12,918 nt of DNA from a virus (Duplodnaviria > Heunggongvirae > Uroviricota > Caudoviricetes > Schitoviridae): positions 1-12,918 of the IMG/VR virus record IMGVR_UViG_2974672511_000001; one strand, given 5' to 3'. The notes beneath the pieces are model-generated. The model had not been told where the DNA came from. It made no database searches and was given only the letters and a program-made list of their open reading frames with translations. Position numbers and translations under genes: made by a program. Of the stretch, positions 562-5,850 are shown piece by piece (the stretch's first letter is position 1; every line of letters starts with the position of its first letter).

Positions 562-1122
562 TTACTTCTCCTCGTAGTAGGTTTTGTTTACAAGAGCTTT
601 AGTCTCGTTAGCTGAGAACCATAGATCAGTACCATCCATTAGACGTTCCATGTCTCGTTCATCTAGGTATTTTGAGTAGATGTCAGTGTAGACTTCGTTC
701 ATGTATTTCTTTTGGTACTCCATTTGTTTCTCTGTATCGGAGCCTTTACCTACTATACCACCTGATTCACGGTGAAGCATTAGTGAGCCGAATTTACCTA
801 CTTGTTTATTCTTACATGATAGGAAGATTAGGGAGCCTGCTGAGAAACCATCACCTACTAGGCGTGCTGTTACTTGGCCTTTACATTGTTCGATAGCATC
901 GATTAGGTGTACTGCTGTGTCTAGGCGACCACCCGGAGTGTTGATTGTTACTAGTACTTTGTCACCTTTACGTGCTTGACGAAGGATTTCGAATTCACGT
1001 TCATATTCACTAGGCTGTTCAATAGGTTCTAGTAAGTCGATATACCCTGTACGGTAGTCACCGTGGTCTGAAAATAGTGGGATGTCTTTGGTTGGTGCTT
1101 TTGGGATTAATAGATCGATCAT
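562..1122 (-). CDS. clpP: ClpP-like serine protease (peptidase S14 / crotonase-like fold), stand-alone, about 186 aa
   Basis: Motifs INTPGG, FSAGSLIFLS (catalytic Ser), LMLH (His), DLWFSA (Asp). Start moved from 1152 to ATG 1122 because TGAGGA SD lies 8 nt upstream and the promoter -10 sits at 1155-1160. Confidence 0.85.
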   Translation of the reverse strand: MIDLLIPKAPTKDIPLFSDHGDYRTGYIDLLEPIEQPSEYEREFEILRQARKGDKVLVTINTPGGRLDTAVHLIDAIEQCKGQVTARLVGDGFSAGSLIFLSCKNKQVGKFGSLMLHRESGGIVGKGSDTEKQMEYQKKYMNEVYTDIYSKYLDERDMERLMDGTDLWFSANETKALVNKTYYEEK

Positions 1123-1146
1123 AGGGTGTATCCTCATATTGTTTGG

Positions 1147-1175
1147 TTGCACTTACTATAAGGTTACTATATCTT
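1147..1175 (+). promoter_or_regulatory. Weaker candidate sigma70 promoter TTGCAC-N17-TATCTT for the packaging operon
   Basis: Correct 17-nt spacing, upstream of the start at 1210; only 3/6 and 4/6 consensus matches. Confidence 0.35.
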
Positions 1176-2444: not shown

Positions 2445-2547
2445 GCCACGAACATTATGTCCTCATTGCGGTAGTACAGATGTAGGTTTAGTCTGGGGCC
2501 ACTTAAAATTTACTTATAGATGTAGGGAGTGTCGTCATGGATATTGA
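2437..2547 (+). CDS. 36-aa C4 zinc-ribbon microprotein (MGEPRTLCPHCGSTDVGLVWGHLKFTYRCRECRHGY)
   Basis: GGAGG SD at 2423-2427; ATGGGTGA 8-nt overlap upstream and 11-nt overlap with terL; CPHC-x17-CREC. Below the ORF-track cutoff. Confidence 0.75.
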   Translation: MGEPRTLCPHCGSTDVGLVWGHLKFTYRCRECRHGY

Positions 2548-4141
2548 TTTAGACATTAATGAAAAAACAGTTGAGGATTATCTCAACGAAGTGGTCTACA
2601 AAGACCAACTAACATACTGTCCTAGCGACTTTGCTTTGGCCTTTGTAACGTTTATCAAGCTGGTAAATGGAGCTGAGGGTGAAGAGAACAAGACACCAGT
2701 AGTACATTACAAGATGTTGGACACTATTACTGAAGGTAAACGACGTATCTGTAACCTATGTCACCGTGGCATTGCTAAGACAACAGTTATGGGTGAGTAC
2801 TTGTTCCTGTATCTAGCGGTATATGGCGAATTACCTGGGTTTGGTAAGATCGATCTTTGTTTATATGTGTCGGATTCCATTGAGAATGGTGTGAAGAACA
2901 TGCGTAAGAACTTAGAACACCGTTGGGATAGCTCAGACTTCCTTAAACACTATGTACCTAACACCCGATTCACAGATGTTCGTTGGGAATTCAACAATAT
3001 CGATGGTAATAAGATGATCGTTAAAGGATATGGTGCTAAAACAGGTGTTCGTGGTGCGAAAGAGATGGGTAAACGTCCACAATTAGCTATTCTCGATGAC
3101 TTGTTCTCGGATGAAGATGCTAAATCACCTACAGTTATTGAGAACGTAGAGGCAACAATCTATAAGGCGGTAACATACGCACTTCACCCTGCTAATAACA
3201 TTATAATCTGGTCAGGTACTCCCTTTAATGCTAAGGATCCTCTATATAAAGCGGTTGAATCTGGTGCATGGGCAGTAAACGTGTTCCCTGTGTGTGAACA
3301 ATTCCCTTGTACTAAGGAAGAGTTTAGGGGTAGCTGGCCTGACCGTTTCACTTATGAGTATGTCTCTGAACAATACTCTACAGCAGTTAAGACTGGTAAG
3401 GCGGATACGTTTAACCAAGAGCTTATGTTGCGAATCATGTCGGATGATGACCGTCTGATCCTTGATTCAGATATTAGTTGGTACAAGCGTTCTAGCCTGT
3501 TAAGTAATATGGAAGCATATAACTTCTATATCACTACCGACTTTGCAACCGGTGCAGAGAAGCACAATGACTACTCAGTTATTAGTGTGTGGGCTTACTC
3601 CTCTAACGGTGATTGGTATTGGGTAGACGGTGTAGTGAAGAAGCAGGACATGTCTAAGAACGTTAATGACCTATTCCGCTTGGCCCAGATGTACAAACCA
3701 CAATCAGTAGGTGTGGAAGTGAGTGGTCAACAAGGCGGTTTCATTAACTGGATACAAGATGAGATGATGCGTAGACGTTGTTGGTTTGCATTGGCTTCAG
3801 AGAACAATTCCAATAAACCGGGTATTCGTCCTGTACCTTCGCAGAAGAAGATCGACCGATTCCAAGTAGTAGTTCCATGGTTCAAAATGAATAGAGTTTT
3901 CTTCCCTCAGGAACGTAAACATTCACCTGAGATTACACAGGCTATGAACGAGCTGACTTTGGTATCTAAACAAGGCTTTAAATCGAAGCACGATGACTTC
4001 TCAGACACGATCTCTATGCTATCGGTACTATCGCCTTGGAAACCTTCAGCGGAGGTCTCAGGGGGTTTTACGGACGGTGTGTACGAGATAGATGATGAGG
4101 AGTATTTAGGCAATACAGGTATGTCATCATATTTACCTTAA
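2537..4141 (+). CDS. terL: Terminase large subunit (N4 gp68-like)
   Basis: ATPase motifs HRGIAKTT (Walker A-like) and AILDD (Walker B), SGTP coupling motif, RNase H-like nuclease acidic residues (TTDFAT, DYSVISVW, HDDFSD); GGGAG SD. Confidence 0.93.
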   Translation: MDIDLDINEKTVEDYLNEVVYKDQLTYCPSDFALAFVTFIKLVNGAEGEENKTPVVHYKMLDTITEGKRRICNLCHRGIAKTTVMGEYLFLYLAVYGELPGFGKIDLCLYVSDSIENGVKNMRKNLEHRWDSSDFLKHYVPNTRFTDVRWEFNNIDGNKMIVKGYGAKTGVRGAKEMGKRPQLAILDDLFSDEDAKSPTVIENVEATIYKAVTYALHPANNIIIWSGTPFNAKDPLYKAVESGAWAVNVFPVCEQFPCTKEEFRGSWPDRFTYEYVSEQYSTAVKTGKADTFNQELMLRIMSDDDRLILDSDISWYKRSSLLSNMEAYNFYITTDFATGAEKHNDYSVISVWAYSSNGDWYWVDGVVKKQDMSKNVNDLFRLAQMYKPQSVGVEVSGQQGGFINWIQDEMMRRRCWFALASENNSNKPGIRPVPSQKKIDRFQVVVPWFKMNRVFFPQERKHSPEITQAMNELTLVSKQGFKSKHDDFSDTISMLSVLSPWKPSAEVSGGFTDGVYEIDDEEYLGNTGMSSYLP

Positions 4142-4175
4142 TCAGGTAAATTTTTATCAATAATTGGAGGTAATA

Positions 4176-4643
4176 ATGAAATTAGTTTTAACGTTAACAC
4201 TAGTATTGGGAATGTTAGTTGGGTGTACTATATCTAAGCAAGCAACCCATATTCGAGGAGATATTACTGTAGTGTCTGAGAACGTGGACAAGGTACATAC
4301 TAGTATTGGGGAGTACTCAAATAATCAGGAGGTACTAGCAGAGTTGGATGAGTTACAGGAGAGTTTACTTGCTGCATTGGATGGAGGTCCTGAGCTACTT
4401 AACTTGGATATCTATTATGCTCAAGCCACTGACATATATCATGTGCTTAAGGCTGAGGCAGTTGAACGTGACAGTGAGTTAACTGATGCCCAACGCAGGG
4501 AACTGCAAGTATTAGATGCACAGGTGCTTCATCTTAATGAGGAGGTGGTACAGTTTAAAGAGGATACCTTTTTATTGGATAAGCTAGGTCTTGTACGATA
4601 TCTTGTAGAGTTTACTAGCAAAATAAGGGGTTATAATGAGTAG
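4176..4643 (+). CDS. Predicted lipoprotein (155 aa), acidic and alpha-helical
   Basis: GGAGG SD before ATG 4176; MK + hydrophobic stretch + lipobox LVG-C17. Confidence 0.8.
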   Translation: MKLVLTLTLVLGMLVGCTISKQATHIRGDITVVSENVDKVHTSIGEYSNNQEVLAELDELQESLLAALDGGPELLNLDIYYAQATDIYHVLKAEAVERDSELTDAQRRELQVLDAQVLHLNEEVVQFKEDTFLLDKLGLVRYLVEFTSKIRGYNE

Positions 4644-5040
4644 CTTAAAAGATTTATTACATGCTCAGGAGTTAGCTAGGATAGGTGTGGTGTATGCACC
4701 TGCTTGTTTCCTTGTAGCCTCGGAGCAAGAGTTACTGGATACCTGTAATGGGTGCGGTGCTGCAGGCAGTTGGTTTAGACCTCCATCTACAATGTGGGGT
4801 ACTTGCATTAAGCCAGCATGTAATATCCATGACTGGATGTATCACAAGGGGTACACTATTGAGGATAAACACCAAGCAGACGAAACCATGCAGAATAATC
4901 TTGATCGTCTTATAGATAGGGATGCCCATAAGTGGTATAAGCCAACTATACTTCAGCATATTAGGAGTAGAATATACTTCATTGGAGTCTCCTGGTTTGG
5001 TGGTTCTGCTTACTGGAAAGGTAAGAATGGTGTAGTATAA
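4636..5040 (+). CDS. Phospholipase A2-like / DUF1353-like His-Asp protein (134 aa)
   Basis: N38GCG, C62-N-I-H65-D66-W-M-Y69, second-helix D82 and an aromatic/basic C-terminal helix; ATGAGTAG 8-nt overlap with the lipoprotein gene. Confidence 0.65.
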   Translation: MSSLKDLLHAQELARIGVVYAPACFLVASEQELLDTCNGCGAAGSWFRPPSTMWGTCIKPACNIHDWMYHKGYTIEDKHQADETMQNNLDRLIDRDAHKWYKPTILQHIRSRIYFIGVSWFGGSAYWKGKNGVV

Positions 5041-5045
5041 TTATT

Positions 5046-5067
5046 AAGTCCCTTAGGGGACTTTTTT
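5046..5067 (+). terminator. Rho-independent terminator closing the terminase-lipoprotein-PLA2-like unit
   Basis: AAGTCCC-ttag-GGGACTT stem followed by T6, 5 nt after the stop at 5040. Confidence 0.88.
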
Positions 5068-5142
5068 ATTACGTGTAAGTAATATCTTATCCTACATCCT
5101 TGATGTATGATTAGGCTTTGGCAATTAACATTAGGAGACATA

Positions 5143-5850
5143 ATGAAACTTTCTGAACTGTTCAGCTACTTGACGTACGGTGAACTAAATAACCTCAAGG
5201 TTGGAGGTAAGGAGGATGGTGGTATATATCCCAAGTATAGTGATGAGGTGGTCACCTATATTACTCAAGGGTTATCTGCACTCCATTCCAGATTTGAACT
5301 TAAACAAAACGAACTTGTAATCCAACAGTTTGAAGAGATTACTGATTATATTATTCAACCCGAATATTCACAATATAACGAAGACTCTACAGAACCTAAA
5401 CGTTGGATAATGGATTTACCTAACTCACCTTACTCAGGAGATCTAATTAGAATCTCAGAAGTATTTAATGAAGGTGGGGTACGTATGCCTTTGAATGACA
5501 GTATGAAACCAAATAGTATGACTACTCCAAGGTTCGATATACTTCAGATGCCTATGCCTGATCCAGAGAATGCTTATGCTGTACTCTATGTTGCTGATCA
5601 TGATCCTATTGATCTAACTAACTTAGCACCTAAATACATTAATATTAGTATACCTACTCCATTAGTTAGGGCACTAGTACTTTATGTGTCATCTCTGGCA
5701 CACACTGCAGTAGGCAGCCCTGAAGGTGTTAATACTGGGTTTGCAAAGATGCAGGAATATGAGGCGGTATGTATAGGTATGGAAGTACAAGGTACAATCG
5801 CAAAAGAAACTTGGGAACTTAATAAGATAAGGAGAGACGGATGGGTATAA
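5143..5850 (+). CDS. N4 gp67-like virion structural protein (head-tail adaptor type)
   Basis: AGGAG SD supports ATG 5143; N-terminus MKLSELFSYLTYGEL.NL..GG and position between terL and the fibre genes match N4-like gp67. Confidence 0.75.
   Translation: MKLSELFSYLTYGELNNLKVGGKEDGGIYPKYSDEVVTYITQGLSALHSRFELKQNELVIQQFEEITDYIIQPEYSQYNEDSTEPKRWIMDLPNSPYSGDLIRISEVFNEGGVRMPLNDSMKPNSMTTPRFDILQMPMPDPENAYAVLYVADHDPIDLTNLAPKYINISIPTPLVRALVLYVSSLAHTAVGSPEGVNTGFAKMQEYEAVCIGMEVQGTIAKETWELNKIRRDGWV

Follow-up and report, generated by a model that had tools for sequence, protein, structure and literature searches.

TtaP, which is encoded in the Salmonella typhoid-toxin islet and is the founding member of DUF1353, is a proven phospholipase A2 (PLA2) that has no signal peptide and stays in the cell, and its authors prefer the idea that it perturbs the outer membrane beside a muramidase (PMC11525133). 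Group XIV PLA2s are represented by the solved structures from Streptomyces violaceoruber (1faz, 1lwb) and Tuber borchii (4aup). A parallel in concept is offered by mycobacteriophage LysB, a lipid-ester hydrolase encoded with the lysis genes of the phage and directed against the outer lipid barrier (10.1101/2025.06.24.661397); it cleaves mycolate-arabinogalactan links in Mycobacteriales and has no lipoprotein partner. The spanins, such as lambda Rz/Rz1, Mu gp23/23.1 and T1 gp11, are fusogens that include an outer-membrane lipoprotein encoded in a late operon (PMC6139136, PMC9239132), and 91 of 677 (~13%) phages of Gram-negative hosts had no recognisable spanin in one survey (PMC6139136). In T6SS loci, the genes of Tle lipase effectors adjoin those of Tli immunity lipoproteins; what the secretion machine delivers, the Tle enzymes, are large lipases of the Ser-nucleophile or HKD kind. 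LysB has an alpha/beta-hydrolase fold, unrelated to PLA2. The enzyme class (TtaP, group XIV) and a lipolytic lysis helper of mycobacteriophages (LysB) are already known, and our search of the openly accessible literature yielded no account of a PLA2-lipoprotein pairing in the lysis of Gram-negative hosts by phages.

The pair analysed here lies in a window that spans the first 12,918 bp of a phage genome 76,918 bp in length (Table 1). Both proteins are 100% identical to entries of Vibrio phage 1.097.O._10N.286.49.B3 in a viral structure library; this phage (Dorisvirus, Schitoviridae) is marine, lytic, cultured and N4-like. A tblastn search with both proteins against cultured phages gave no match, and among 50,697 phage records only one other, distant homologue of the enzyme was found.

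Table 1. Features of the lipoprotein-PLA2 locus and its flanks (window coordinates)
Feature	Positions	Strand	Remarks
Terminase large subunit, N4 gp68-like	2537..4141	+	phrog_38, E 3e-98; upstream flank of pair
Ribosome-binding site of lipoprotein gene	4166..4171	+	GGAGGT; conserved in L005
Lipoprotein gene, 155 aa	4176..4643	+	signal peptide II, Cys17; outer-membrane-type (predicted)
Phospholipase A2-like gene, 134 aa	4636..5040	+	H65-D66, Y69, D82; NGCG motif; C62
Intrinsic terminator closing the pair	5046..5067	+	7-bp stem, U6
N4 gp67-like virion protein	5143..5850	+	phrog_2125, E 3e-69; downstream flank of pair

The sequence-only reading of this DNA had described an 8-nt overlap between an acidic lipoprotein gene and a basic-tailed PLA2-like gene, closed by a strong terminator. 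The overlap is exact (4636 versus 4643), and the ATG of the lipoprotein gene lies 4 nt past the GGAGGT site at 4166-4171. In close relatives the overlap is 1, 4 or 0 nt; hence translational coupling is conserved and the 8-nt figure itself is not. The terminator, with its stem at 5046-5063 and U run at 5062-5067, reaches -10.7 kcal/mol (z -3.3), and a compensatory U-A to C-G double change is present in one relative. It is nevertheless typical rather than exceptionally strong, because it has only 4 G-C pairs, and a terminator directly behind the enzyme is not a family trait (2 of 26 loci). Compared with the relatives L001 and L005, both genes are under purifying selection (dN/dS 0.12-0.32 and 0.03-0.15), and the pair is a real, conserved feature. 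In the same comparison (window 2537-5040 versus L001 and L005) dS of the PLA2 gene is about 0.46, far below that of the lipoprotein gene (0.7-2.3) or terL (1.6), which hints at recent recombination inside the pair. A palindrome of 6 bp with a 3-nt loop (window 5093-5107) lies between the terminator and the gp67 gene and is kept or varied in L001 and L005; it may serve the genes 3' of the insert as a promoter or restart signal. Elsewhere in the window, a ClpP-like protease gene (562-1152, minus strand) is divergent from the late operon and conserved in relatives.

The model of the enzyme (pLDDT 91.6) finds its best solved-structure matches in fungal and actinobacterial group XIV PLA2s, with Z 10.2 and rmsd 3.4 over 101 residues for the Tuber enzyme 4aup and Z 5.7 for the next match. 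In a profile search, C62, H65, D66, Y69 and D82 align with the catalytic set of the Streptomyces PLA2 (E 1e-4). Across 149 distant representatives of a family that comprises 1,803 clusters at 50% identity, H65 and D66 occur in all 149, D82 in 144 (97%), and C40 and C62 in 135 (91%) each. By sequence and fold the protein therefore falls within the PLA2 His-Asp superfamily and is group XIV-like, with a common helical core, the catalytic residues and a Cys three positions before the His. It is not a group XIV secreted PLA2 proper: identity is about 15%, secretion signal and propeptide are missing (a hydrophobic N-terminus was seen in 0 of 119 non-redundant enzyme loci), the N-terminal helices are different, and in place of two disulfides the cysteines allow one likely bond. 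By analogy with group XIV enzymes this bond is presumably C40-C62, the Streptomyces alignment stopping short of C40, and N38 presumably replaces the Ca2+-binding Asp. The C-terminal 40 residues are basic (+6, pI 10.4), as the sequence-only reading had noticed.

DUF1353 (PF07087) is weakly matched by 20 of 30 close homologues of the enzyme (best E 6e-6), the prokaryotic PLA2 family by 7 of the 30, and the 134-aa enzyme itself has no match in Pfam, PF07087 included; its profile aligns with a true DUF1353 protein at E 1e-4 and a probability of 55%. Common to both are a small stand-alone PLA2 domain, the His-Asp...Asp set, the absence of a signal peptide and a place beside a phage-type muramidase. 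However, TtaP is without the group XIV cysteines, whereas the window enzyme has the NGCG motif and C62, is encoded by a lytic phage and is coupled to a lipoprotein. Judged from the sequences, the enzyme family is probably a cysteine-bearing sister group of TtaP. The catalytic helix pair also resembles, with weak scores, that of densovirus VP1 domains, and some homologues are encoded behind tail genes, as expected if the enzyme were a virion-borne entry aid or a eukaryote-directed toxin (parvovirus VP1u-like or SlaA-like). Such a role is very improbable for a protein of a lytic phage that carries neither a signal peptide nor a fusion to a structural protein and whose dominant neighbours are endolysins and lipoproteins.

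The partner protein is, as had been proposed, an acidic helical lipoprotein with the lipobox LVGC, Cys17 and Thr at +2; its mature form has a net charge of about -15 and a pI of 4.5. Fifteen homologues, with identities down to ~22-30%, were collected, and in an alignment of 16 sequences the lipobox Cys is invariant and Asp never occurs at +2. Signal peptide II, lipobox Cys and a non-Asp +2 residue together predict a Lol-sorted outer-membrane lipoprotein. The predicted model is an all-helical four-helix bundle (pLDDT 69.5) whose fold matches, many of them scoring close to the best Z of 11.8, are four-helix bundles of a generic kind, and no specific relative was found in Pfam, PHROGs, NCBIfam, the ESM Atlas or fold searches. 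An amphipathic C-terminal helix common to the partner lipoproteins was sought and is not general.

As in the spanins, an outer-membrane lipoprotein is encoded in a late operon, and homologous enzyme-lipoprotein pairs occupy the spanin slot of Mu-like cassettes; the differences are that the window pair has neither a linked i-spanin nor a C-terminal transmembrane helix, and that the partner is a hydrolase, not a fusogen. Peak 17-residue hydropathy of the mature protein is 0.85 (family 0.8-1.6), so a C-terminal transmembrane helix is lacking, and with its all-helical predicted model the protein does not correspond to a unimolecular spanin of the T1 gp11 type, whose periplasmic domain is beta-rich. 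Nor does its gene sit as that of a two-component o-spanin would, inside, overlapping or behind a type II transmembrane (TM) coiled-coil gene: terL lies upstream, and a 105-aa TM-coil candidate is ~12 kb off and has no linked lipobox ORF. No canonical spanin pair could be recognised in the genome with a detector that recovered the lambda and P2 pairs, and PF03245 is absent. Credible lipoproteins of the genome are only the 155-aa protein and a 61-aa one in the middle region (98% in relative 1.026.O).

It had also been stated that the window holds no holin, endolysin or i-spanin. This is correct and yet misleading, since the lysis genes lie 3.4-4.3 kb past the window end, ~11 kb from the pair. 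Genome positions 16352-17267 encode two small proteins of membrane type, a 59-aa phrog_402 protein and a 105-aa protein with TM segment and coiled coil, and an M15 endolysin (E 1e-31). The whole core lysis region (16352-17994; L207:3453-5095) includes a convergent PhoH-M15 endolysin unit and is kept in four cultured relatives. The 105-aa gene (16546-16863) has an i-spanin-like layout and a faint match to an Rz-like family (E 0.0036), and in L210-L213 TM-coil genes come after the pair; the lipoprotein might accordingly be an atypical, separated o-spanin of this N-terminal-TM coiled-coil protein, with the phospholipase as an independent passenger. We regard this arrangement as unlikely. The 105-aa protein matches a DUF2730-type family equally faintly and is retained at 44-71% identity in relatives without the lipoprotein. 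The lipoprotein is predicted to fold as a compact bundle, lacks additional Cys residues and any Pro-rich tract, and has the enzyme, not the TM-coil gene, as its nearer neighbour.

The relatives with and without the insert define its status. In pVa5, 1.026.O, PJN101 and pYD6-A, whose terminases are 80-96% identical to that of the window phage (95-96% in the nearest cultured relatives without the insert), both genes are absent genome-wide under positive controls that worked, and the 59-aa, 105-aa and M15 genes are kept in all four. The pair is accordingly an accessory insert and not an essential outer-membrane step of the phage group, because four cultured relatives share the core lysis genes and have neither gene; for the same reason outer-membrane disruption in the group cannot depend on the module alone. 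A likelier candidate for the essential outer-membrane or holin factor is the 59-aa or the 105-aa gene. Of the spanin-independent disruption system suggested from the sequence alone, the lysis context and the want of a recognisable canonical spanin pair have held, and the role of sole disruptor has not.

In three of the four cultured relatives gp67 lies directly behind terL, and the terL-gp67 slot is an insertion hot spot in Pontosvirinae. In pVa5 (L203:3014-7230) three unrelated genes are found there, together with a hairpin that resembles a terminator. Elsewhere in its genome, 1.026.O encodes a 158-aa lipoprotein with an HTHP motif (L209:24395-24871), of which only the C-terminal 95 residues (88% identical) are left in 1.097.O (genome 63981-64687), a GIY-YIG-like endonuclease gene standing in the position of the signal peptide. 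Small, diverse lipoproteins are typical of receptor blockers. Together with the accessory status, the own terminator and the unrelated genes found in the variable slot of pVa5, this would suit protection of the progeny, the lipoprotein blocking the receptor from inside (lytic conversion of the Llp/Cor type) and the enzyme digesting virion-trapping debris. That function is doubtful, given that in L210 and L211, which represent a different phage type, the same lipoprotein family lies with the enzyme away from tail genes and directly behind a GH108 or DUF5675 endolysin, and that the enzymes are concentrated near endolysins and take the place of the spanins in Mu-like cassettes.

Co-occurrence of the two genes, proposed earlier as a check, is borne out: the enzyme is found one to two genes 3' of the lipoprotein family (31-63% identity) in all 10 loci with readable downstream DNA (L001, L005, L006, L165, L210-L215). 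Wider counts were made with a purpose-made gene caller and a lipobox rule that overlooks some lipoproteins recognisable by eye, on loci that share ancestry and are not phylogenetically independent. Among 109 non-redundant loci in which both neighbours of the enzyme were visible, an endolysin lay within three genes of the enzyme in 57 (versus 6 of 960 genes further away) and a lipoprotein adjoined it in 35; adjacent small genes were lipoproteins in 35 of 165 cases, compared with 6 of 482 further away. Where enzyme, lipoprotein and endolysin were all present, the lipoprotein touched the enzyme in 21 of 26 loci and the endolysin in 9 of 26, and lipoproteins were more frequent at endolysin loci with the enzyme (25/53) than without it (6/39, p 0.002). 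In about half of the enzyme loci no gene nearby is labelled as an endolysin, and some enzymes stand behind tail genes; about two thirds of the enzyme genes have no adjacent lipoprotein detected. A classical DUF1353 gene likewise adjoins a 152-aa lipoprotein and a GH108 endolysin (L227:2586-3501), which extends the pairing beyond the cysteine-bearing subfamily. The pair probably helps to break the host outer membrane, because relatives of it are placed within the sets of lysis genes of many other phages.

The partners themselves are heterogeneous. They form 23 sequence clusters, helical and beta-rich, mostly without detectable kinship; profile comparison of the main families links only D, J and K and ties the 155-aa family to none. 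The enzymes of L002 and L004 are 80% identical, and their partners, one helical and one beta-rich lipoprotein, are unrelated; other well-supported sister enzymes also have different partners. The enzyme tree behind this was built quickly from few columns and is weakly supported overall, and only its starred sister pairs were used. Families G and H occur also without the enzyme, in L366 next to a gene with a weak match to C92 (permuted papain). This swapping is better explained by a functional neighbourhood than by a lock-and-key inhibitor, and it tells against the effector-immunity reading put forward earlier, in which the lipoprotein would block the phospholipase in the manner of T6SS Tle-Tli pairs, timing the damage or shielding still-infected cells from their neighbours' enzyme. 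Tight translational coupling, the unbroken co-occurrence of the 155-aa family with the enzyme, the opposite charges of the two proteins and their joint insertion as a unit speak for it, and a lipase gene next to a lipoprotein gene recalls Tle/Tli. We nonetheless consider inhibition improbable: partners are not family-specific and are often missing, until lysis a lipoprotein in the periplasm has no access to an enzyme in the cytoplasm, the context is a phage late operon with no VgrG/PAAR in the window, and neither an immunity match nor a known Tle/Tli family or T6SS context was found with Pfam, PHROG and NCBIfam.

In the cassettes of Mu-like phages the enzyme is flanked by the endolysin on one side and by homologues of gp25, gp26 and terS (gp27) on the other, a position held in Mu by the spanins gp23/23.1. 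Spanin-like pairs, partly scored by eye, occur in 0 of 13 such cassettes with the enzyme and in 6 of 24 without it. The expected anticorrelation with spanins thus has the predicted direction and is suggestive but not significant (p 0.07, or 0.14 without Mu). A stronger contrast of 0/13 versus 17/24 was set aside, as 11 of the 17 were C-terminal-TM proteins, one of them called a holin by Pfam and PHROGs. In the endolysin-selected marine control, detectable spanins were almost absent whether or not the enzyme was present, and with a detectable spanin pair in only 1 of 39 loci without the enzyme it offers no contrast; 33 of these 39 have neither spanin nor lipoprotein nor enzyme. In L003, another N4-like contig, the enzyme and a different lipoprotein fill the lysis slot, ahead of the genes for the M15 endolysin and the portal, and no 59-aa or 105-aa homologue was detected within the contig DNA examined. 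Some Mu-like cassettes without PLA2 (L366:2946-3976; L409:3024-3802; L009:5568-6405) carry a papain-like gene 5' of a PLA2-pairing lipoprotein family. It is of the permuted, C92/YiiX type, with a weak Pfam match in L366 and L009 and none in L409, and possibly marks the swap of one lipid-acting enzyme for another. The gene after PLA2 in Mu-like phages (L075:6382-7014 and its cluster 13 homologues) often joins a two-TM holin-like peptide to a lipoprotein-like domain that also occurs alone.

We favour, at somewhat better than even probability, an accessory, enzyme-based lysis aid that weakens the envelope. The module would have been acquired from the pool of lysis-cassette genes and inserted behind terL as a unit with its own terminator, and it would be expressed late on the terminase transcript. 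The enzyme would be stored inactive in the cytoplasm; once the inner membrane is breached, it would meet periplasmic oxidation and seawater Ca2+ and become active, a control by Ca2+ and disulfide that we infer from known group XIV enzymes. It would then cut phospholipids to lysolipids and fatty acids, and, with the wall already removed by the M15 endolysin, the lysolipids would weaken the outer membrane, which is stabilised by divalent cations (10.1101/2025.06.24.661397). The lipoprotein may serve as an exchangeable helper on the outer-membrane side, recruiting the basic enzyme or stressing the membrane rather than inhibiting it, and the pair would add to the core 59-aa, 105-aa and endolysin genes without replacing them. 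Deletion of ttaP produced no envelope or secretion phenotype (PMC11525133), which counts against a lysis aid. A bolder version, in which a cytoplasm-stored, Ca2+- and disulfide-gated PLA2 and an exchangeable lipoprotein form a widespread enzymatic route that does the work of a spanin, entirely so in some phages (Mu-like and marine ones) and as a booster here, is put forward only tentatively.

Cultured lytic 1.097.O with the insert and its cultured near relatives without it provide a natural comparison, which also caps the claim: the pair is not essential here. If true, a route based on lipid hydrolysis would give phages of Gram-negative hosts their equivalent of LysB, and it would hint at the role of TtaP beside the typhoid-toxin muramidase.
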